Below, piece by piece: positions 2,077-49,471 of a DNA stretch of 64,000 nt (within the stretch, counting starts at the first letter, position 1; every line of letters begins with the position of its first letter). The stretch covers positions 710,800-774,799 of the forward strand of contig JBBAAO010000001.1 in NCBI GenBank assembly GCA_041658205.1. Direction: 5' to 3'. Made by a program: the position numbers and the translations under genes. The notes under the pieces were generated by a model, which searched no databases, was not told the DNA's origin, and saw only the letters and a program-made list of their open reading frames with translations. This stretch comes from Bacteroidota bacterium (GTDB taxonomy: Bacteria > Bacteroidota > Ignavibacteria > UBA10030 > UBA8401).

Positions 2077-4386
2077 CTATTTCTTATTAGGTTTAGCCCC
2101 CATCTCGAATACAATCGCCGCACCGTTCATTAGATCAGAATGAATGAAATAATTTTTCTTCCATTCCGTTCCGTTTAGCATAATCTTTTGCACATATACA
2201 TTCTTTGGCGATTGATTCTTTGTGTTGATGGACAGTGTTTTTCCGTTCTCCAGTTTGATCTTTGCTGACTTCACTAATGGACTACCGATCGAATATTGAT
2301 CCGAACCAGGAGCGACAGGGTAAAATCCTAATGCACTGAAAATATACCACGCAGACATTTGTCCGCAGTCGTCGTTTCCGCTCAGCCCGTCCGGCGTATT
2401 CGAATATTTAATGTTCAAGATCTTGCGGACTTTTTCTTGTGTCTTCCATGACTCACCGATCCAGTTATAGAGATACGGGACATGATGAGAAGGTTCATTT
2501 CCATGAACATAGTTTCCGATGATCCCTTCGCGAGTAATATCTTCGTTATGTGCAAAGAATTCGTCCGGCAGATGCATGGTAAAGAGCGAATCTAAGTAAT
2601 TAGAAAATTTTTTATTCCCACCAAGTAATTGAATCAATTTTGGCACGTTGTGGGGGACATGAAGGGAATAATTCCACGAATTGCCCTCAATAAATCCTTG
2701 TCCGTCGGTTTCTAACACACTAAAGTTTTTCCGGAACGATCCATCGCTCATTTTTGGACGCATAAAACCGATTGATGCATCGAAGACATTGCTGAAATTC
2801 TCTGATCGTTTGATGAACTCATTATACACTTTTTCATTTCCCAGCTTTTTTGCCATCTGTGCAATCGCCCAATCGTCGTAGGCATATTCCAGCGTTTTAG
2901 AGACGGATGAGGAGTTCTTATCGTCCGGTATATATCCCATTGCTATGTAATATTCCAAGCCGTCGTAGTATTTTTGCTGTGCTGTCTTTACACTTGCATC
3001 AAGTGCTTTTACTACATCAAAAGAAACATTTCCTTTTATGAATGCATCAGCAATGACCGACACGCTATGATAACCGATCATGCACCAATTTTCATTGGCA
3101 TAATGAGACCAAATCGGAAGCATGTTGTGAACGCTCTGTTCGTAATGAGCAAGCATTGAACGAATCATATCGCCGTTTCGTTTCGGCTGAAGGATGTTGA
3201 AGAGAGGATGAAGAGCACGGTACGTATCCCACAGTGAGAATGTTGTATAATTGGTAAATCCATCAGCAGTATGAATATTCTGATCGATTCCTTTGTATTG
3301 CCCATCCACATCCATATAGACTGTTGGACTGAGAAACGTATGGTAAAGAGAAGTGTAAAACGTCTCAGTATCTTTTTGGGAAAGGAGTTCGGCATTTACT
3401 TTTCCCAATTCTTCGTTCCACAAATCTTGACTCTCTTTCTTTACCCGCTCAAAATTCCAGTCCGGAATTTCAGCAGTGAGATTTTTTACTGCTCCTTCTG
3501 TGCTCACAGGGGATAACGAAAATTTTACTTTGATCTTTTCATTTACTTCTGTTGAAAAATTGAAATAAGCTCTGATATTCTTTCCCGCCATTTCGGGGAA
3601 ATTGGTTCTCACGTCGAATTTTTTCCAGAAACCGCGATAGATGGAAGTATCAAATTTCGCATGACCGTATGATGTAAACGGTTTGTTGAATGCCATGGCA
3701 AAATAGACAGTGCGTGTCCGTCCCCAGCCATTGGTCTGTCTAAATCCCGTCACAAGCGTGTCACTTTCAACACGGATGAATGTCCAGACATTCTTTTCAT
3801 CATAATTATAGATACCGTGCATCAAATCGAGAATGATATGTGATTCTTCCGATCGCGGGAATGTGTATTGATGAAAACCGACGCGTGTAGTTGCAGTCAA
3901 TTCCGCCGTGATTCCGCCGGAGGCGGATCCGCCTTTGGCGGAGTTATGGTCATCCAGTTTCACTTTGTAATACGCCGGCTCGGCAGTTTCGTTTGTGTGT
4001 GAATAGCGAGACCGATAACCGTTTTCAGGATGATTTGCTGTGCCGGGATTGAGTTGTAATTCACCGGTTGTCGGCATGATTAAAAAATCGCCAAGGTCGG
4101 AATGTCCTGTCCCGCTGAAATGTGTGTGACTGAATCCGACAATCGTCTTATCTTCATATTGATATCCTGCACAGTACTGATAGACTTCTGCCTGATATTT
4201 TCCATTCTTCTCGTAACTGAGTGTATCGGTATCCGGACTGAGCTGCACAGAGCCGAAAGGAACTGTTGCTCCGGGAAATGTATGTCCCATTCTCTGTGTG
4301 CCGGTGAGTGGTTTTACGTATTGGATGAAATTTGTTTGTGCGAAAATGATGATGGGAAAAACAAACAGAAGAGATACTTTTCTCAT
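2077..4386 (-). CDS. GH92 family alpha-mannosidase (alpha-1,2-mannosidase-like), secreted
   Basis: Start trimmed to the internal Met (MRKVSLLFVFPIIIFAQ signal peptide). The motif GFSHTHFSGTGHSDLGDFLIMP and the overall length (about 770 aa) are typical of GH92. Confidence 0.85.
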   Translation of the reverse strand: MRKVSLLFVFPIIIFAQTNFIQYVKPLTGTQRMGHTFPGATVPFGSVQLSPDTDTLSYEKNGKYQAEVYQYCAGYQYEDKTIVGFSHTHFSGTGHSDLGDFLIMPTTGELQLNPGTANHPENGYRSRYSHTNETAEPAYYKVKLDDHNSAKGGSASGGITAELTATTRVGFHQYTFPRSEESHIILDLMHGIYNYDEKNVWTFIRVESDTLVTGFRQTNGWGRTRTVYFAMAFNKPFTSYGHAKFDTSIYRGFWKKFDVRTNFPEMAGKNIRAYFNFSTEVNEKIKVKFSLSPVSTEGAVKNLTAEIPDWNFERVKKESQDLWNEELGKVNAELLSQKDTETFYTSLYHTFLSPTVYMDVDGQYKGIDQNIHTADGFTNYTTFSLWDTYRALHPLFNILQPKRNGDMIRSMLAHYEQSVHNMLPIWSHYANENWCMIGYHSVSVIADAFIKGNVSFDVVKALDASVKTAQQKYYDGLEYYIAMGYIPDDKNSSSVSKTLEYAYDDWAIAQMAKKLGNEKVYNEFIKRSENFSNVFDASIGFMRPKMSDGSFRKNFSVLETDGQGFIEGNSWNYSLHVPHNVPKLIQLLGGNKKFSNYLDSLFTMHLPDEFFAHNEDITREGIIGNYVHGNEPSHHVPYLYNWIGESWKTQEKVRKILNIKYSNTPDGLSGNDDCGQMSAWYIFSALGFYPVAPGSDQYSIGSPLVKSAKIKLENGKTLSINTKNQSPKNVYVQKIMLNGTEWKKNYFIHSDLMNGAAIVFEMGAKPNKK

Positions 4387-7589: not shown

Positions 7590-7787
7590 GTAAATGCTTT
7601 TCTTCCTTGCACTTCAACCTCACCTTTTCTATTTTCATACAACATTGTCGATTGAAACGTTAAAAACATTAATGTTCTTTCGAAAACATCCCGCAGGTTA
7701 TGCAGAAAAACATTATTTCTGCGAACATCAGTGATATTTGCGGGAACATCTTTTTTAAAACCTCATAAAACATATGAAGGAATCAGC

Positions 7788-8939
7788 ATGTCCGATACAG
7801 CAGTAAGTTTTGCCCCCACACAACAAATGACCATGGTCCAACAGATGGCGCGCGATTTTGCGGAAAAAGAAATTAAACCGCATGTTATGAAATATGACGA
7901 ATCGCAGGAATTCCCTAAAGAGATCTTTACGAAAATGGCCTCTCTCGGTTTTCTTGGCGCTTATTATCCCGAAGAACTCGAAGGGGCCGGACTCAATACG
8001 CTCGATTTTACCGTGATTATCGAAGAGATAGCAAAGATCGATCCCTCTGTAGCGCTGGGACTCTGTGCACACAACGGGCTTTGTGTTAGTCACATCTTTA
8101 ATCACGCAAGCGATACACTAAAGAAAAAATATCTTCCCGATCTTTTAAGCGGAAGGAAACTTGGCGGCTGGGGATTGACCGAAGCATTTTCCGGAAGCGA
8201 TGCGGGAGGGATGAGAACATTCGCTGTAAAAGAAGGGAACGAGTGGGTGATCAACGGCAGCAAGAATTTTATTACACATGGCATCTCCGGCCACACGTTT
8301 GTTATACTGGCGGTGACAGATAAAACAAAGAACAAATCGATCTCCGCATTTATTGTGGAGAAAGGAACGCCCGGCTTTTCATCTGGGAAGAAGGAAAATA
8401 AACTCGGTATGCGCTGCAGTGAAACTGCTTCGTTGATCTTCGACAACGTGCATATTCCAGAGGAGAACTTGATTGGAAATGTGGGAGAGGGATTCAAACA
8501 AGCATTGTCTGTCTTAGATGGCGGAAGAATTGGGATCGCTGCACTGTCAGTCGGTCTTGCACAAGGTGCATTGGAAGCGAGCATTAAATATTCAAAGGAG
8601 CGGGTGCAGTTCGGCAAACCGATTTCTGATAATCAAGGAATTCAATTTAAACTTGCCGATATGGCAATGGAAATTGAAGCGGCGCGATTATTAACGCGAA
8701 AAGCGGCATCCATGAAAATGGCCGGTTTAGATGTAAATCTTGAAGCAGCACAGGCGAAATATTTTGCAAGCGAAGTGGCTACGCGCGCATCGGGTGATGC
8801 AGTGCAGATACACGGCGGATATGGATTTACCAAAGATTTCCCGGTAGAAAAATTCTATCGCGACGTTAAACTGCTTACCATCGGCGAAGGAACAAGCGAG
8901 GTTCAGAAGATGGTGATTGCGAGAAACTTGCTTAAATAA
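7788..8939 (+). CDS. Acyl-CoA dehydrogenase (isovaleryl-CoA dehydrogenase-like)
   Basis: Start moved to the ATG at 7788 (MSDTAVSF...). Classic ACAD motifs present (GSKNFITHG, catalytic-Glu region EGTSEVQKMVIAR). Length 383 aa. Confidence 0.85.
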   Translation: MSDTAVSFAPTQQMTMVQQMARDFAEKEIKPHVMKYDESQEFPKEIFTKMASLGFLGAYYPEELEGAGLNTLDFTVIIEEIAKIDPSVALGLCAHNGLCVSHIFNHASDTLKKKYLPDLLSGRKLGGWGLTEAFSGSDAGGMRTFAVKEGNEWVINGSKNFITHGISGHTFVILAVTDKTKNKSISAFIVEKGTPGFSSGKKENKLGMRCSETASLIFDNVHIPEENLIGNVGEGFKQALSVLDGGRIGIAALSVGLAQGALEASIKYSKERVQFGKPISDNQGIQFKLADMAMEIEAARLLTRKAASMKMAGLDVNLEAAQAKYFASEVATRASGDAVQIHGGYGFTKDFPVEKFYRDVKLLTIGEGTSEVQKMVIARNLLK

Positions 8940-9024
8940 TTTTACTCAATGAACAATGAACAGCTAACAATTACCATATTTTGCAAAACATTGTTAATTG
9001 TTTATTGATAAATGATTACTGAAT

Positions 9025-10674
9025 ATGATCGGTTCTGAAATAAAGAAAGACGAAAATTTTAAGCGCAACGAAGAATTCCACAAGCGTTCGTTGAAGGAAC
9101 TGGAATCCTATGCTAGACAGGTTATGCTTGGCGGTGGTGTTGATGCAATGCTGAAGCATAAGAAAAAAGGGAAAATGACAGCCAGGGAACGGATCAATTT
9201 ACTGATCGATCCGAAATCGCATTTTTTGGAGGTTGGACTTTTTACTGCTTATGGAATGTATGAAGAATATGGCGGAGCGCCTTCCTCGGGAACAGTATTT
9301 GGAATCGGCAAAATCCACAATCATGATGTTGTTATCGTAGCAAACGATGCGACTGTGAAAGCAGGAGCGTGGTTTCCCATTACCGCAAAAAAGAATCTCC
9401 GCGCACAGGAAATTGCAATCGAAAATCGTCTGCCGATCGTTTATCTCGTCGACTCAGCAGGTGTTTTTCTACCGTTGCAGTCAGAAATTTTTCCTGATAA
9501 AGAACATTTTGGACGGATCTTCCGCAATAATGCCGTGATGTCCGCCATGGGTATAACACAAATCGCTGCGATTATGGGTCCATGCGTTGCCGGTGGAGCA
9601 TATCTTCCCATCATGAGCGACGAAGCGATGATTGTGGATAAAACTGGATCTGTCTTTCTTGCTGGCTCACATTTAGTGAAAGCGGCGATCGGTGAGGATA
9701 TCGACAATGAATCGCTCGGCGGTGCATCGGTCCATTGCGAGATTAGCGGTGTGACGGATCATAAGATGGCTAATGATGAAGCGGCGTTAAAAAAGATTAG
9801 AAGCATCATCAGTAAGCTGGGACATTTTCCGGTTGCAGGATTCAATTACGAAAAGCCTTCGAAGCCAAAATTCGATCCGAAAGAAATTTACGGCATATTA
9901 CCGACGGAACGAAACAAACCGTATGACACATATCAAATTCTTTCCCGCATTATCGACGATAGCGAACTGGATGAATACAAATCCGGATTTGGGAAGACTA
10001 TCATCTGCGGATACGCGAGAATAGACGGCTGGGCAGTCGGTATTGTTGCCAATCAGCGCGCCATCACCAAAACAGCAAAAGGGGAGATGCAAGTGGGAGG
10101 AGTAATTTATTCGGATAGTGCGGACAAAGCGACTCGGTTTATTTTGAATTGCAATCAAAAGAAAATTCCTCTAGTGTTCTTTCAGGATGTAACCGGATTT
10201 ATGGTTGGCAGTAGGAGCGAACATGGCGGCATCATTAAAGACGGCGCGAAGATGGTTAATGCCGTTGCAAATTCTGTCGTTCCAAAGTTCACGATTATTA
10301 CCGGGAACAGCTACGGCGCGGGAAATTATGCCATGTGCGGAAAAGCGTACGATCCGCGATTGATTTATGGATGGCATTCGGCGCAGATTGCTGTAATGGG
10401 AGGAAAGCAAGCGAGTGAGACCCTGCTTGCCATAAAAGTGCAGGCGATGGAAAAAGGGGGAACGCATATTTCCTCCGAACAGCAGAAACAATTGCTGGAT
10501 GAGATTCAGGCGAAGTATGAGAGTGAACTCGATCCAAAATTTGCGGCTGCCCGGCTTTGGGTGGACGGTATCATCGATCCGTTATTGACTCGCGATATCA
10601 TCTCGCGTGGAATTGCGATGGCGAATTGTAATCCGAATATGCCGGAGTTTAAGACGGGAGTTCTGCAGGTGTAA
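9025..10674 (+). CDS. Acyl-CoA carboxylase carboxyltransferase (beta) subunit, methylcrotonyl-/propionyl-CoA carboxylase family
   Basis: 549 aa. Carboxyltransferase N and C domains recognised (GGGVDAMLKHKKKGKMTARERI, MGPCVAGGAYLP). Adjacent to the isovaleryl-CoA dehydrogenase-like gene, which suggests leucine catabolism. Confidence 0.8.
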   Translation: MIGSEIKKDENFKRNEEFHKRSLKELESYARQVMLGGGVDAMLKHKKKGKMTARERINLLIDPKSHFLEVGLFTAYGMYEEYGGAPSSGTVFGIGKIHNHDVVIVANDATVKAGAWFPITAKKNLRAQEIAIENRLPIVYLVDSAGVFLPLQSEIFPDKEHFGRIFRNNAVMSAMGITQIAAIMGPCVAGGAYLPIMSDEAMIVDKTGSVFLAGSHLVKAAIGEDIDNESLGGASVHCEISGVTDHKMANDEAALKKIRSIISKLGHFPVAGFNYEKPSKPKFDPKEIYGILPTERNKPYDTYQILSRIIDDSELDEYKSGFGKTIICGYARIDGWAVGIVANQRAITKTAKGEMQVGGVIYSDSADKATRFILNCNQKKIPLVFFQDVTGFMVGSRSEHGGIIKDGAKMVNAVANSVVPKFTIITGNSYGAGNYAMCGKAYDPRLIYGWHSAQIAVMGGKQASETLLAIKVQAMEKGGTHISSEQQKQLLDEIQAKYESELDPKFAAARLWVDGIIDPLLTRDIISRGIAMANCNPNMPEFKTGVLQV

Positions 10675-32117: not shown

Positions 32118-32783
32118 ATGAAATGGCAAATTCCGTTAATTATTCTCATTCTTTTGGCAATTGGCTGCGGTCCTTCATCACCCCGTTTTGCTGGAAAGGA
32201 TAGCTCAAAAAAAGAAACGAAGAAGACTAATAAAGGGAACATCCGTTTCACCTCCAAAGTAATGGAAGAGGAAAAGAGAGAAGACGATAAAAAAGTCGAC
32301 CTAAAAAAAGTGGAACAGCGTTTTAGTAGTGCTAAGTCTTCAACAAGTCCGGTTTCACCCAAAAAAGAGAGTGTGGATTCTAAAAAACCGAGTGGCTCTG
32401 TCGCCGGAAGCTTTGAACAACAGAAAATGATGGATGCAATTCTTGGATGGATGGGGACTCCGTATGAATATGGCGGAGAGGGAAAAGGAGGGATCGACTG
32501 TTCTGCTTTTTCAAGAGAAATTTTCAGATCAAGCGCAGGCCAAGAACTTCCGCGAACAACGGAAGATCAAGCGAAATTGGGTTCATCCGTACAACAGGAA
32601 AATTTGAAGTTTGGGGATCTGATCTTTTTTAATACAACCGGACAGAATCCATCACATGTTGGTATTTATATCGGCGACGATATGTTCGCCCACGCAAGCG
32701 TTAGTTTTGGAGTGACACTTTCTTCATTATATTCATCTTATTATAAAAAACGATATACAGAAGCAAGAAGAGTCTTACAATAA
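32118..32783 (+). CDS. NlpC/P60 (C40) family peptidoglycan hydrolase lipoprotein
   Basis: 221 aa. Lipobox LLAIGCG. Catalytic Cys region GIDCSAFSREIF and His region PSHVGIYIGDDMFAHAS. Confidence 0.8.
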   Translation: MKWQIPLIILILLAIGCGPSSPRFAGKDSSKKETKKTNKGNIRFTSKVMEEEKREDDKKVDLKKVEQRFSSAKSSTSPVSPKKESVDSKKPSGSVAGSFEQQKMMDAILGWMGTPYEYGGEGKGGIDCSAFSREIFRSSAGQELPRTTEDQAKLGSSVQQENLKFGDLIFFNTTGQNPSHVGIYIGDDMFAHASVSFGVTLSSLYSSYYKKRYTEARRVLQ

Positions 32784-32857
32784 TTTTTTCATTGAATCAT
32801 CGTGCAATTGATTCAATGTATTAATGAACAAATGGATCAATTTATTTTGGAGTAACA

Positions 32858-33442
32858 GTGGCAATATTACCAATCTACCTATACGGCAACGAAGTTCTTA
32901 AGAAAAAAGCAAAACAAGTAGCCGAAGTGACTGATACGGACATTAAGCTTATTCAAGATATGTTTGAAACAATGCATGAGTCGAATGGAATCGGTTTAGC
33001 AGCAAACCAGGTGGGAGATTTGAAACAGATTCTCGTCGTGGATATTTCCGATATGGAAGCAGGGAAAGGGACGAAGCCGCTTGCCATTATCAATCCCAAA
33101 ATTGTGGATGAAGAAGGGGAATGGGAAATGGAAGAAGGCTGTTTGAGCATACCGGAGGTTAGGGAAAAAGTATGGCGCGCCGAAAAGATCACCGTGCAGT
33201 ACAACGATGTGAACATGGAAAAGGTTGAGTTGACAGCAGATGGCATGCTTGCCCGTGTCATCCTTCATGAGATGGATCACTTGAACGGTGTCCTTTTTAT
33301 CGATCATTTGACCTCAACGAAGAAAACATTGCTTCGTCCGAAATTGAAGAAAATTATGAAGGGACATGTAGAGACGGAATATGAAGTTGTTATTGCAGGC
33401 GAGCATAAATCGAAAACAAAAAGTAAAAAAATTGTTTTATAG
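32858..33442 (+). CDS. def: Peptide deformylase
   Basis: 194 aa with a GTG start. Motifs GIGLAANQVG, EGCLS, HEMDHLNG. Confidence 0.9.
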   Translation: MAILPIYLYGNEVLKKKAKQVAEVTDTDIKLIQDMFETMHESNGIGLAANQVGDLKQILVVDISDMEAGKGTKPLAIINPKIVDEEGEWEMEEGCLSIPEVREKVWRAEKITVQYNDVNMEKVELTADGMLARVILHEMDHLNGVLFIDHLTSTKKTLLRPKLKKIMKGHVETEYEVVIAGEHKSKTKSKKIVL

Positions 33443-33584: not shown

Positions 33585-34526
33585 ATGAAAATAGTATTTA
33601 TGGGCACTCCGGATTTTGCTGTTCCAAGTCTGGAGATATTACTGAAGAACAATTACACGATCTCTGCAGTGGTGACCGCTCCTGATAAACCGCGCGGGAG
33701 AGGACAGCAGGTCAGTTTTACTCCCGTAAAAGAATGTGCTCAAAAATATTCTCTTCCGATTTTTCAACCCCAATCGCTGAAAGATCCACAATTCATCGCT
33801 CAACTTGCTGAACTCAAACCAGATCTTTTTGTGATTGTTGCATTCAGAATTTTACCAAAAGAAGTGTACTCCATCCCAGATAAAGGAGCGTTTAATCTAC
33901 ACGCATCTTTGCTCCCAAAATACCGCGGTGCAGCACCAATCAATTGGGCGATTATCAATGGAGAAAAAGAATCGGGAGTAACAACATTCTTCCTACAGGA
34001 TAAAGTTGACACTGGAAATATCATTTTGCAAGAGAAGGTGACGATTACAGATGAGATGAATGCCGGGGAATTGCACGATGCACTTTCTGATATCGGTTCG
34101 AGAGCTGTATTGGAAACTGTGCAAAGGATTGAACAAGGGATAGCAAATCCTCAAAAACAAAATGATCTACTTGCTTCACCAGCACCGAAAATATTTAAAG
34201 AGACATGCCGAATTGATTGGAGTCGATCTGCAGAGAAAATCCATAATTTCATCCGTGGACTTTCACCATACCCGGCGGCGTGGACGAGTCATAATGGAAA
34301 AGTGGTGAAGATATTCAAGAGCAGAAGAACAGAAAATGAGATTCAGAATTCAGGATTCAAGATTCATGGTGCAGGTGAAATACTGGTAAGTGAAAAGCAA
34401 TTGTTCGTAGCCGCCGAGAATTCAGTTCTTGAAATTCTTGAACTTCAACAGGAAGGGAAGAAGAGAATGAGCGCCGAAGAATTTTTACGGGGATATAGAT
34501 TTGCGGAGAATAGTAGATTTGATTAG
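33585..34526 (+). CDS. fmt: Methionyl-tRNA formyltransferase
   Basis: 313 aa. Formyltransferase N and C domains (MKIVFMGTPDFAV, NLHASLLPKYRGAAPINWAIINGE). Confidence 0.9.
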   Translation: MKIVFMGTPDFAVPSLEILLKNNYTISAVVTAPDKPRGRGQQVSFTPVKECAQKYSLPIFQPQSLKDPQFIAQLAELKPDLFVIVAFRILPKEVYSIPDKGAFNLHASLLPKYRGAAPINWAIINGEKESGVTTFFLQDKVDTGNIILQEKVTITDEMNAGELHDALSDIGSRAVLETVQRIEQGIANPQKQNDLLASPAPKIFKETCRIDWSRSAEKIHNFIRGLSPYPAAWTSHNGKVVKIFKSRRTENEIQNSGFKIHGAGEILVSEKQLFVAAENSVLEILELQQEGKKRMSAEEFLRGYRFAENSRFD

Positions 34527-46956: not shown

Positions 46957-47880
46957 ATGAAAATTATTCTCACTATGGCAATCATTGTTTGCTTCAGTGC
47001 CGCACAAACACAAAACGAATTCCCTGCTTCAAATCCGGACAAAATTCTTTCAAAAAAACTTCAGGATTTGCTCACTGGTTTTCGAGGAGAGTATGGAGTG
47101 TATGTTCGTCATTTGAAAACCGGAAAAACAGTAGAGATCAATGCAGACTCATTGTTTCCAACGGCGAGTATGATAAAAGTTCCGATCATGACGGGGGTAT
47201 TTGATAAGATTGAAAAAGGTGATCTGAAATATGATTCCTTGCTGGTGTTCAGAGATTCATTGATTTATCCGGGAGAGGATATTACCGGATCGCTGAAAGA
47301 TTCCTCAAGAATATTGTTGAGCAAAATTGTGATGCTTATGATCACCACAAGTGATAATACCGCAAGTCTGTGGTGTCAATTTTTGGCAGGAACAGGTACA
47401 CGCATTAATGAGATTATGGAAGTGAATGGATTCAAGGTAACTCGTGTGAATTCCCGCACGCCAGGTAGAGAAGAAATGAGAACGCAGTATGGATGGGGTG
47501 TTACCACACCGAGAGAAATGGCCGAACTTGTTGTTAAGATACATCATGGAAAAATGATCACTCCATGGGTCAGCGAACGAATGTACCGGAATCTTGCCAG
47601 AATTTATTGGGATGGTGAGTCTCTTTCTGAATTACCGCCATACATTCATGCTGCATCAAAACAAGGTGCAGTAAATCAATCTCGATCAGAAGTAGTTCTT
47701 GTGAATGCGCCAAGCGGCGATTATGTTTTTTGTGTGATCACAAAAAATCAGGTGGATGAAAGCTGGGTGAATGAAAATGAAGGATATGTGCTGCTCAGAA
47801 ATGTTTCGCGCACGCTGTGGCAATATTTCGAACCGAACGACAAATGGAAATCGATGGAGCAATCGATGAGATACCATTGA
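46957..47880 (+). CDS. Class A beta-lactamase-related serine hydrolase, secreted
   Basis: Start trimmed to MKIILTMAIIVCFSAAQ. S-x-x-K (ASMIK) and SDN (TSDNTAS) motifs present. Confidence 0.7.
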   Translation: MKIILTMAIIVCFSAAQTQNEFPASNPDKILSKKLQDLLTGFRGEYGVYVRHLKTGKTVEINADSLFPTASMIKVPIMTGVFDKIEKGDLKYDSLLVFRDSLIYPGEDITGSLKDSSRILLSKIVMLMITTSDNTASLWCQFLAGTGTRINEIMEVNGFKVTRVNSRTPGREEMRTQYGWGVTTPREMAELVVKIHHGKMITPWVSERMYRNLARIYWDGESLSELPPYIHAASKQGAVNQSRSEVVLVNAPSGDYVFCVITKNQVDESWVNENEGYVLLRNVSRTLWQYFEPNDKWKSMEQSMRYH

Positions 47881-47883
47881 AAT

Positions 47884-47917
47884 TTAATCATTGTTTCATC
47901 GAATCATTGAATCATTT
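47884..47917. repeat. AT-rich heptamer-repeat arm (AATCATT-type). Inverted partner of the arm at 48298-48340, upstream of the four-helix-bundle gene.
   Basis: The reverse complement matches 26 of 34 positions of the downstream arm. Confidence 0.5.
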
Positions 47918-47930
47918 TTAGTTTTATTCA

Positions 47931-48302
47931 GTGGTGAACATGTATCAGTCAGAAGAGTTAAAACTTCGTTCAAAAAGGTTTGCGTTAAGCATTGTAGCAT
48001 TGTTTCAATCTTTGCCAAAATCTGACGATGCTCGTGTGTTAGGTAAACAAATGCTTAGATCCGGAACATCTGTTGCTGCTAATTACCGTGCAACATGTAG
48101 AGCAAGATCAAAAGCGGAATTTATTGCTAAGATTGGAATTGTTGTTGAAGAAGCAGACGAGACAGTTATGTGGTTGGAAATGCTTACGGATTCGAAAATT
48201 GTACCTTCTACAGTAACGGACTCTTTATTAAAAGAGGGGAATGAACTTCTTGCAATTTTTGCGGCTTCATATAATACTGCCAAGTATGGCAAAAACAAAT
48301 GA
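47931..48302 (+). CDS. Four-helix-bundle protein (23S rRNA intervening-sequence protein family, TIGR02436-like)
   Basis: 123 aa. The RFALSIV...GKQMLRSGTSVAANYRA...EFIAKIGIVVEEADET pattern is characteristic of this family. Confidence 0.8.
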   Translation: MVNMYQSEELKLRSKRFALSIVALFQSLPKSDDARVLGKQMLRSGTSVAANYRATCRARSKAEFIAKIGIVVEEADETVMWLEMLTDSKIVPSTVTDSLLKEGNELLAIFAASYNTAKYGKNK

Positions 48303-48340
48303 ATCAATGGATCAATGAATAAATGAATTAATGAATCAAT
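48298..48340. repeat. Tandem AATGAAT-like heptamer repeat (about 6 units). Downstream inverted arm flanking the four-helix-bundle gene.
   Basis: aaatgaatcaatggatcaatgaataaatgaattaatgaatcaat, read directly from the sequence. Confidence 0.6.
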
Positions 48341-48346
48341 TTCCTT

Positions 48347-49471
48347 ATGAATGCTAAACTCAAAATAGGCGTGTTATTTGGCGGCCGCTCTGCCGAACAC
48401 GAAGTTTCACTCGTATCCGCGGCATCGGTGATCAATGCATTGGACAAATCGAAATACGATGTTGTTCCGATCGGCATTACAAAAGAGGGAAGGTGGTTGA
48501 GTGCCGTAAATGCTATTCAATTGCTGAAAGACCATTCGCCGATTGAACAGCTCCCCGAGCACGTGCTTCTTCCCGATCCGCGAAAACAATCGCTCGTCAA
48601 CATCAGCGGTGCATTTCCACAAAATGCGCAAAAAGTGGATGTCATCTTTCCCGTAATCCACGGAACATTCGGCGAGGATGGAACGATTCAAGGATTGTTT
48701 GAATTAGCAGATCTACCGTATGTTGGTGCCGGCGTATTGGGCTCGGCTGTAGGAATGGATAAAGTTATTGCAAAACAATTATTACAAAATGTTCATATTC
48801 CGGTTGCGCCGGGTATCTCGTTCATGTATTCGCAGTTCAAAACGAAATCCAAACAATATATTGTCGATATTGAAAAGAAATTGAAATATCCCTGCTTTGT
48901 GAAACCGCCGAACCAAGGATCGAGCGTTGGGATCAGTAAAGCACATAATCGGAAAGAACTTATTGCCGCAATTCATGCTGCGGGAGAATATGACAGAAAG
49001 ATTCTTGTAGAAAAAGCGGTGAACAGACCGAGAGAGATTGAATTAAGTGTGTTGGGTAATGATGAACCAATCGTTTCCCTGCCGGGTGAGATCGTCCCCT
49101 CGAACGAATTTTATGACTACGATGCGAAGTATGTGGATGGAAAATCGTCTGCTCATATTCCTGCAAAACTCACCAAACCAGTCATAAAAAAATTGCAGGA
49201 TTGTGCATTGAAAGCATATATTGCGTTGGATTGTTCGGGAATGGCTCGAGTCGATTTCCTGCTGCAACGAAACGGGAAATTCTATCTGAATGAGATTAAC
49301 ACAATTCCCGGTTTTACTTCCATCAGCATGTATCCAAAATTATGGGAAGCGTCAGGAATTTCGTATTCTGAATTGCTCGATCGGTTGATCGGATATGCCA
49401 TTGAACGATATGAATCAAAGAAGAAGTTAAAAACATTTTATACACCAAAATCAGATTGGTACAAAGAATAA
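48347..49471 (+). CDS. ddl: D-alanine--D-alanine ligase
   Basis: 374 aa. ATP-grasp fold. N-terminal [20 protein letters not shown] and C-terminal ARVDFLL...[12 protein letters not shown] motifs. Confidence 0.9.

Follow-up and report, generated by a model that had tools for sequence, protein, structure and literature searches.

A conserved four-helix-bundle gene between mirror-image octamer arrays in a cell-wall operon of a Bacteroidota bacterium

The stretch analyzed here, hereafter the window, comprises 64,000 nucleotides (nt) of the forward strand of contig JBBAAO010000001.1 (positions 710,800 to 774,799; assembly GCA_041658205.1, a Bacteroidota bacterium of the class Ignavibacteria; G+C content, 41%). 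Inside a cell-wall operon, it carries a small, conserved gene for a four-helix-bundle (4HB) protein enclosed by two mirror-image arrays of tandem octamers, which confirms the central observation of a preliminary description made from the sequence alone. The gene lies on the forward strand (positions 47940 to 48302), as do both arrays and the adjoining genes. Upstream, about five degenerate ATTG-type octamers (ATTGAAAT, ATTGTTTC, ATCGAATC, ATTGAATC, and ATTTTTAG) extend from 47876 to 47917, with a Tandem Repeats Finder (TRF) array at 47882 to 47916 (period 8, 4.4 copies, unit ATTGAATC). Downstream, 5.4 CAAT-type octamers (AATGAATC, AATGGATC, AATGAATA, AATGAATT, and AATGAATC again) extend from 48297 to 48343, with a TRF array at 48298 to 48340 (period 8, 5.4 copies, unit AATGAATC, 85% matches, score 65). 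The tracts lie where the preliminary description placed them (47884 to 47917 and 48298 to 48340), and its reverse-complement identity of 26 out of 34 positions was reproduced; a repeat search returned inverted arms at 47879 to 47916 and 48306 to 48343 (38 nt, 76%) and at 47882 to 47917 and 48297 to 48332 (36 nt, 78%). The units had been read as heptamers; AATGAAT is indeed 7 nt long, yet it recurs every 8 nt, so that the units are octamers.

Because the unit core, TGAWTCA or TCAWTGA, is nearly palindromic, idealized units match at 7 of 8 positions both as direct and as inverted repeats. The actual arms match slightly better in the inverted orientation (76 to 78%) than in the direct one (63 to 72%). 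A three-unit pattern with up to 3 mismatches is matched at five places in the window, of which four lie in the downstream array; shuffled sequences give an expectation of 0.04, which excludes a chance origin of the arrays.

The arrays fill both intergenic spacers around the 4HB gene, about 40 nt on each side. The left boundary of this unit, which we call the cassette, is a gene for a class-A beta-lactamase-like serine hydrolase (46957 to 47880; Pfam PF13354, E = 3.8e-43; also in the gene calls on same-species contigs). The final codon and stop of the hydrolase, CAT TGA (47875 to 47880), read CATTGA, the core of the repeat unit, and the first unit of the upstream array overlaps the stop codon. 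A 22-nt leader (47918 to 47939) separates the array from the 4HB start codon and would fall within the loop if the arms paired; across homologues, the arm end and the conserved coding region are separated by a median of 20 nt. On the right, the downstream array overlaps the 4HB stop codon, TGA (48300 to 48302), and ends 3 nt short of the ATG of ddl, the gene for D-alanine-D-alanine ligase (48347 to 49471; PF07478 and PF01820), which forms the other boundary. Since the arrays abut the stop and start codons of the neighbors, they may affect the expression of essential genes.

All genes from MTHFR (45384) onward are codirectional. Directly upstream of MTHFR are a terminator-like hairpin and a promoter-like site, and no terminator-like site was found between the hydrolase gene and ddl. 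The placement between a beta-lactamase-like gene and ddl therefore stands as first described; the functions of the neighbors, which had been called unrelated, proved to be peptidoglycan-related throughout (serine hydrolase, D-Ala-D-Ala ligase, and an M74-like murein endopeptidase). No transposase, integrase, or recombinase was present among the Pfam-annotated gene calls within about 6 kb of the 4HB gene. Searches of the PADLOC (defense-system) and PHROGs (phage protein) libraries gave no match, and an Rfam search of the entire window at the gathering cutoff yielded 0 matches, so that it contains no rRNA or known RNA family.

The family assignment of the encoded protein is firm. PF05635 matches residues 13 to 109 of the 123-amino-acid (aa) open reading frame (ORF) with 60.4 bits (cutoff, 33.8) and is the only Pfam match; TIGR02436, "four helix bundle protein," scores 82.3 bits (cutoff, 24); and residues 7 to 113 match chain A of a solved four-helix-bundle structure, PDB 2RLD, an entry with five chains (E = 2.7e-16). 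The length of 123 aa in the preliminary description, which corresponds to the alternative GTG start at 47931, was revised: on five independent contigs, gene callers place the start of an identical 120-aa protein at the ATG at 47940. By analogy with the relatives Avd and Xanthomonas campestris S23p, the protein may form a homopentameric ring. PF05635/TIGR02436 is a very large family, for which a homology search gave at least 8,000 candidates, and we know of no function for it outside diversity-generating retroelements (DGRs), where reverse transcription requires the relative Avd. Among viral contigs, no close relative of the window protein was found; there were only two weak phage matches, and the one inspected lacked arrays. 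Comparison with orthologues yielded a proportion of nonsynonymous differences (pN) of 0.12 to 0.21, with a proportion of synonymous differences (pS) of 0.61 to 0.88, that is, saturated synonymous sites; where dS could be estimated, dN/dS was at most 0.13. The protein is under purifying selection, and these values identify the gene as an old, functional resident.

To trace the history of the hydrolase-ddl junction, the window was compared with other loci and contigs, designated here by L-numbers. The exact window protein is present on same-species contigs in the same gene context, and the homologues that were looked up are 73 to 100% identical overall. The closest homologues examined (L166, L167, and L169 to L171; 73 to 83% identity) and those in two genome loci (L006 and L007; 74%) lie directly upstream of ddl in the shared order MTHFR-aldolase-hydrolase-4HB-ddl, which is partly visible on the short contigs L167, L171, and L005. 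In all these orthologues, the octamer CATTGAAT/CAATGAAT is kept despite saturation of the synonymous sites. The lengths of the arrays, by contrast, vary widely. In L166, they span 305 nt on each side (regions 3290 to 3490 and 3863 to 4160), each flank consisting of an ATTG-type run that abuts a CAAT-type run, which yields a local hairpin, and in L167 (250 to 600), three hairpin modules of about 100 nt lie in tandem upstream of the gene. These sister species show very fast array dynamics around a conserved gene.

The comparison of orthologous junctions that the preliminary description had proposed revealed both presence and absence: most relatives are occupied, one is empty, and one retains a remnant. 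A metagenome scan with Ddl produced only relatives of at most 67% identity that lack the hydrolase and the cassette, and hence no empty site; in the more distant L086 and L089, the aldolase gene adjoins ddl, with neither hydrolase nor cassette. The informative loci came from homologues of the hydrolase. In L182, an Ignavibacteriales metagenome-assembled genome (MAG) whose hydrolase is 78% identical, the hydrolase ends in ...TATCAT TAA and is followed by 29 repeat-free nt and the ddl ATG, without a 4HB gene. Because the empty junction lacks arrays, the arrays belong to the insert. L182 represents either the ancestral empty site or a precise loss. L181 likewise lacks a 4HB gene and retains, just upstream of ddl, a three-unit remnant, CCATTGAAACACTGAACCAATGATG, which corresponds to the position of the change from ATTG-type to CAAT-type units in L166; a tree of MTHFR, aldolase, and Ddl places L181 as sister to the window plus L166. 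Finally, L183, the closest relative of L182, carries at the same junction a 127-aa 4HB protein that is only 54 to 57% identical to the others, compared with 75 to 80% for housekeeping genes, and its arrays are built from a different octamer (ATGATTTT/AAAATCAT). The window protein is closer to proteins from Nitrospirota and Acidobacteriota (63 to 66%) than to the L183 protein at the same junction (55%). Thus, at this one junction, the cassette can disappear, leaving a scar or none, and it has been replaced or independently acquired.

The notion of a mobile mini-cassette survives in part: the cassette is a discrete unit, as the empty, scarred, and replaced junctions demonstrate, but it is no foreign newcomer, being found at the same junction in several species. 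It is rarely exchanged over evolutionary time and yet is an old, operon-embedded resident of the lineage. Two observations had been named in advance as speaking against a cassette, conserved synteny and repeat-free homologues. Synteny is largely conserved across the lineage, whereas the homologues are clearly flanked by repeats. Other genes change at this junction as well. An unannotated gene for a protein of about 320 aa, without a Pfam match on record, is present in L181 (3663 to 4625) and in L166 (2230 to 3195; 321 aa), with 69% identity between the two, and in L166 it occupies the slot of the hydrolase; this suggests that the hydrolase-ddl junction is a general hotspot of gene turnover. 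In L169 (3967 to 4983), the same position harbors another Ddl paralogue (338 aa, only 37% identical to the window Ddl), whereas MTHFR is 80% identical.

The layout seen in the window recurs throughout the family. Scanning one genome for each species yielded 80 loci with homologues 46 to 74% identical to the window protein, from Bacteroidota, Acidobacteriota, Nitrospirota, Verrucomicrobiota, Chlamydiota, candidate-phyla-radiation lineages, Desulfobacterota, Planctomycetota, Lentisphaerota, and Cloacimonadota. Inverted arrays characterize about 87 4HB genes from more than 10 phyla, and they are seen on most of the sampled plasmids. At almost every locus, the gene is directly preceded by short tandem repeats and directly followed by their reverse complement. 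Compared with 268 control ORFs in these loci, 79 homologous genes had higher inverted-repeat scores in their flanks (Mann-Whitney P = 1e-24), with 67% of the 79 above the control 95th percentile, and the inverted score exceeded the direct score in 74 of 87 genes. Within 150 nt of the gene, arrays with periods of 6 to 10 have 6.5 times the density found in the remainder of the loci (2.65 versus 0.41 per kb). Most loci have a period of 7, the subfamily of the window protein has 8, and distant paralogues have 9; the arrays contain a median of about 4 copies, with a range from about 2 to more than 25.

The unit sequences vary from locus to locus (for example, GATTGCA, GATTGAG, GATTGGC, GGTAATT, and CCTAAAGTG) and differ among protein subfamilies, but agree between the two arms of a locus: arm pairs from the same locus had a median score of 19, compared with 10 for cross-locus pairs. 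Related ATTG-containing octamers recur around the closest Nitrospirota and Acidobacteriota homologues, and GC-rich loci from Acidobacteriota and Verrucomicrobiota show the pattern as well, built from very different units. Polarity is conserved, too. The arm that is read first is G-rich (G over C in 371 pairs, versus 104), an appearance that is the same from either strand, and 43 of 87 upstream units contain an ATTG core, with CAAT in 6. In 67 of 81 loci, both neighbors have the same direction as the 4HB gene, and the spacers are short (medians of 42 nt upstream and 31 nt downstream), indicating that the cassettes are typically embedded in operons. Two such residencies are long-lived. Across the Verrucomicrobiota loci L020 to L032, a syntenic cassette separates a conserved gene from gatB, and its downstream array (ATCTGAAATCTGCAATG) contains both the stop codon of the 4HB gene and the start codon of gatB; in several genera of Flavobacteriaceae (L053 to L085), a cassette is located between moaE-like and moaC-like genes.

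Plasmids show the same layout, as in Gloeocapsa, Nostoc punctiforme (GTCGGAG/CTCCGAC), Planktothrix, Euhalothece (TCACTGG, 14 copies), Treponema, and Chlorohelix, and the plasmid copies are often located inside defense operons, as on the plasmids of Gloeocapsa, Planktothrix, Chlorohelix, and Monoglobus (L172, L175, L176, and L177, respectively). The order DUF1156-4HB-Swt1-family HEPN was found in two different phyla, with similar GATTTTA-type units; other plasmid defense contexts are DISARM DrmD-4HB-MmeI and type I hsdS-4HB pseudogene-hsdR. Full-text literature searches found no description of a general link between the 4HB family and flanking tandem arrays; the coverage of these searches was incomplete and is no proof of novelty. 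This striking regularity nevertheless appears to be undescribed.

Arrays of the same kind also occur without the gene. In the window, tblastn finds only the 4HB gene itself and no paralogue. Of the further copies for which the preliminary description had proposed a search, the window contains one without an ORF. This relative of the arrays, at 32790 to 32846 on the forward strand, consists of a perfect 10-bp hairpin (CATTGAATCA, a 9-nt loop, and TGATTCAATG) followed by CAAT-type octamers (AATGAACAAATGGATCAATTT) ending in ...GGATCAATTT. It is identical to the right arm of the cassette at 31 of 39 positions (alignment score, 23.5, versus a maximum of 18 in about 3,000 random windows) and takes up most of the 74-nt spacer between two codirectional ORFs, 32118 to 32783 and the peptide-deformylase-like 32858 to 33442. 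A strict search of the 4HB locus flanks identified 11 gene-free inverted array pairs with loops of 22 to 57 nt, in 9 of 77 loci; all 11 of these solo hairpins share the polarity of the cassettes. In L026, a solo hairpin with the unit of the cassette, ATTGCAG, fills the entire spacer one gene upstream of it.

We give an even chance to the reading that the window element is a self-contained, intervening-sequence (IVS)-type cassette, in which a functional PF05635 gene and two mirror-oriented, conserved short tandem arrays fill a codirectional operon spacer. The mechanism that we infer has four steps, each a proposal rather than a demonstrated event. The cassette would be cotranscribed with the hydrolase gene and ddl. 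In the transcript, the paired arrays would form a long, imperfect RNA helix that loops out the 4HB gene and keeps the insertion harmless; by analogy with the 23S rRNA IVS of Coxiella, this helix would probably be cut by a double-strand-specific RNase. The 4HB protein, as a relative of the RNA-binding pentamer Avd, may recognize the repeat units, which would explain why the units are conserved beyond the neutral expectation and track the protein subfamily. Rare gain, loss, and exchange might then result from slippage or recombination inside the arrays, with solo hairpins left behind: a hairpin-gene-hairpin arrangement of the L166 type supplies direct repeats, recombination between which would leave a solo hairpin like the scar in L181.

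The predicted folds are consistent with the second step in that both the minimum-free-energy and the centroid structures of 47875 to 48350 close with an arm-arm helix, with the hydrolase stop codon in its first pairs and the ddl start codon 6 nt beyond it. Several findings weigh against the IVS-type reading. Arm mismatches lack a strand-specific RNA signature (78 are compatible with G:U and 84 are A:C), and the fold of the whole cassette is no more stable than those of shuffled sequences (z = -0.92). Complementarity between the arms in the window is limited to about 77%, and as direct repeats the units match equally well. Because the flanks fold locally in L166, L167, Planktothrix, and Treponema, arm-arm pairing is not the sole possible structure. 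The element lies outside any rRNA gene, and the association with arrays has exceptions: the phage locus L178 has no evident arrays, Bernardetia (L179) has weak direct repeats only, and the arrays of the Monoglobus pseudogene (L177) are weak. Two further ideas about the units were considered. That every unit would supply a stop codon in all three frames was rejected, since ATTGCAG and ATTTCAG contain none, and a pentamer stoichiometry of exactly five units is not supported by copy numbers that range from about 2 to more than 25.

Other explanations account for parts of these data. The arrays could mainly be binding sites for the 4HB protein, with a pentameric ring reading about five tandem units in RNA or DNA for autoregulation or another transaction and with mirror symmetry being secondary. 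This explanation overlaps the protein-recognition step above and drops the RNA stem and RNase III. In its favor, the unit sequence itself, beyond complementarity, is kept in orthologues with saturated synonymous sites; the unit type follows the protein subfamily, partly across phyla; the ATTG core prevails in upstream units, with a median of about 4 copies per array; Avd is an RNA-binding pentamer, and 2RLD was deposited with five chains; and the arms show no G:U excess. The wide span of copy numbers, however, argues against a fixed stoichiometry, coinheritance of gene and arrays alone would produce the same tracking of subfamilies, and both the complementarity of the arms in 74 of 87 genes and their matching within loci are left unexplained; we consider binding sites alone a rather unlikely account. 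The preliminary description favored a DNA element akin to MITEs (miniature inverted-repeat transposable elements) or other transposons, in which the arrays would be terminal inverted repeats with subterminal sites for a transposase or recombinase acting in trans and the 4HB gene would be cargo. Inverted ends made of repeated short sites do resemble the multisite ends of some transposons, and presence, absence, and replacement at one junction, the ORF-less copies, and the symmetry of G:U and A:C mismatches, which is compatible with constraint at the DNA level, all fit such an element. Yet the boundaries show no target-site duplication: there is none at the arms (...CCATT/GAAATT...AATTTC/CTTATG), and the empty site in L182 contains no duplicated target. 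The absence of a transposase, integrase, or recombinase within about 6 kb speaks against a recombinase-targeted unit, and the constant cargo family with variable ends is the reverse of what is seen in a trans-mobilized MITE family. With one site kept through saturation of synonymous sites and a single gene copy in 64 kb, this model appears improbable. The narrower label MITE can be ruled out, given that the insert is a selected protein-coding sequence without target-site duplication, present in the window as one gene copy and one diverged ORF-less array copy.

Two explanations carry very little weight. Short tandem repeats arise readily in AT-rich spacers, and near-palindromic units give some inverted similarity for free, so the 4HB gene could be an ordinary resident gene whose AT-rich flanks happen to hold functionless slippage repeats. 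The five pattern matches where 0.04 were expected, the lack of the pattern in the flanks of control ORFs from the same loci, its recurrence with quite different units in GC-rich Acidobacteriota and Verrucomicrobiota, the conservation of the units beyond the neutral expectation, and the array-free empty site effectively refute this view. Equally remote is a role as the Avd-type accessory protein of a DGR, which would be in keeping with the inclusion in PF05635 of Avd-like proteins, present in most DGRs. The roughly 6 kb on either side of the gene encode MTHFR, aldolase, the hydrolase, Ddl, the M74-like peptidase, and others but no reverse transcriptase; the repeat search of the region gave only the arrays and no template/variable repeat pair; and viral contigs contain no close relative. 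The absence of a reverse transcriptase within about 6 kb rules out a DGR module.

The comparison with rRNA IVSs was made through the description of the Coxiella burnetii element in PMC4990558. ORF-containing 23S rRNA IVSs include that of Coxiella, with S23p, and have been reported also for Leptospira, Brucella, and Xanthomonas. In C. burnetii, three or four tandem heptamers (GACAGAT), variable in number among strains, lie directly upstream of the S23p ORF, and the inverted repeats at the ends make a stem of 28 bp that RNase III cuts in vitro at the start of the first repeat; this IVS is regarded as selfish or once mobile, with a decaying ORF that is probably untranslated (PMC4990558). The window cassette shares with these elements an ORF of the same protein family enclosed by terminal inverted repeats able to form a stem, with arms of 36 to 38 nt that are 76 to 78% complementary and close the helix in the predicted folds. 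It differs in lying in a spacer between protein-coding genes rather than in helix 9, 25, or 45 of 23S rRNA and, unlike the Coxiella IVS, has octamer units and a protein under purifying selection. With no rRNA detected in the window by Rfam, the element has the anatomy of an rRNA IVS without its location.

Likeness to other systems is partial. Avd is a positively charged, pentameric four-helix bundle that binds an RNA stem-loop encoded beside its own gene. The window protein has a homologous fold, but neither a reverse transcriptase nor template/variable repeats are near its gene; flanking tandem arrays have not been described for Avd, and the sampled phage 4HB homologue has none. In systems of repetitive extragenic palindromes (REP/REPIN) and their RAYT transposases, a single, vertically inherited gene is flanked by inverted short repeats that also occur as gene-less hairpins in spacers of the same genome. 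In the 64-kb window (32790 to 32846) and in the flanks of 9 of 77 related loci (the solo hairpins), repeats like those that enclose the inherited 4HB gene are likewise seen without a gene, which resembles this logic within the sequence surveyed; however, the window gene encodes a 120-aa helical bundle without a HUH/Y1 transposase domain or known catalytic activity, and its repeats are tandem arrays (units of 7 to 9 nt across the family) instead of a single palindrome. The lack of a HUH domain, with PF05635 as the sole Pfam match, rules out a RAYT/REPIN system. Like MITEs and integron cassettes, the element is a small insert between genes that is bounded by inverted repeats and polymorphic for presence; unlike them, it is coding and selected, and its ends vary while its cargo is constant. 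An integron cassette is ruled out by the absence of an integrase among the neighbors and by flanks that are tandem octamers, not a single imperfect attC palindrome.

Tandem heptanucleotide arrays of a similar sequence style are known from intergenic regions, namely, the short tandemly repeated repetitive (STRR) sequences of cyanobacteria, the GGGAATC arrays of Xanthomonas, and GGGGAYT in Nostoc. The Xanthomonas arrays often form convergent inverted pairs, of which there are 70 to 75 per genome, and the paper that describes them does not connect them with a gene (PMC4692102). The literature searched on these tandem heptamers contained no link to a flanked gene family. The window arrays differ in consisting of octamers and in being tied to one gene, in a Bacteroidota/Ignavibacteria-like MAG; the 4HB genes on Nostoc, Planktothrix, and Euhalothece plasmids, for their part, are flanked by STRR-style heptamer arrays. 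A broader proposal, possible although we lean against it, is that 4HB proteins and inverted arrays of 7- to 9-nt units make up one very widespread two-part element, with the protein recognizing its own units. The copies with a gene, in operon spacers, defense operons, and 23S rRNA, would then correspond to autonomous elements and the gene-less hairpins to nonautonomous ones. Such an element would account for the ORF-containing rRNA IVSs and for at least part of the unexplained tandem heptamers, such as cyanobacterial STRRs and the GGGAATC pairs of Xanthomonas.

Taken by itself, the local case is modest. The family-wide regularity, in contrast, is indicative of a gene cassette of the rRNA-IVS kind that is widespread and rarely mobile, and it makes the function of a very large orphan family directly testable. 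If the family generally sits in arm-matched arrays, the repeat units, as RNA or DNA, are a concrete ligand to test. If true, the association would offer a common explanation for ORF-containing rRNA IVSs and operon-embedded copies and a possible origin for the tandem-heptamer hairpins that have been puzzling in cyanobacterial and Xanthomonas genomics. For annotation, it is relevant that these cassettes interrupt operons, between the hydrolase gene and ddl here and, elsewhere, between moaE and moaC, between a conserved gene and gatB, and within restriction or DISARM operons.

Repeats of related style were also encountered in other settings. In L028 (6974 to 7589), arrays of four to five copies of the near-palindromic unit AACGYTC bracket a 191-aa hexapeptide-repeat gene on the opposite strand, showing that arrays of such style can bracket non-4HB genes. 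In L016 (6919 to 7647), two arrays of four GCGTGAA units, at a distance of about 700 nt from each other, are accompanied by duplicated 5' ends of a minus-strand gene; between the two arrays lies a small antitoxin-like/ParE-like gene pair, that is, another small inserted module. Within the window, the 85-nt spacer between ORFs 7731 to 8939 and 9025 to 10674 contains an inverted heptamer hairpin at 8943 to 9019, (CAATGAA)x2 ... (ATTGTTA/ATTGTTT/ATTGATA), with an RNA fold z score of -2.2. Its interpretation as a gene-deleted cassette is doubtful, because the CAAT arm comes first, a polarity opposite to that of the cassettes and solo hairpins. Finally, four tandem AGATTCA heptamers at 34339 to 34366, apparently coding and situated just upstream of what is likely a methionyl-tRNA formyltransferase-like C-terminal part, may represent an in-frame repeat insertion.

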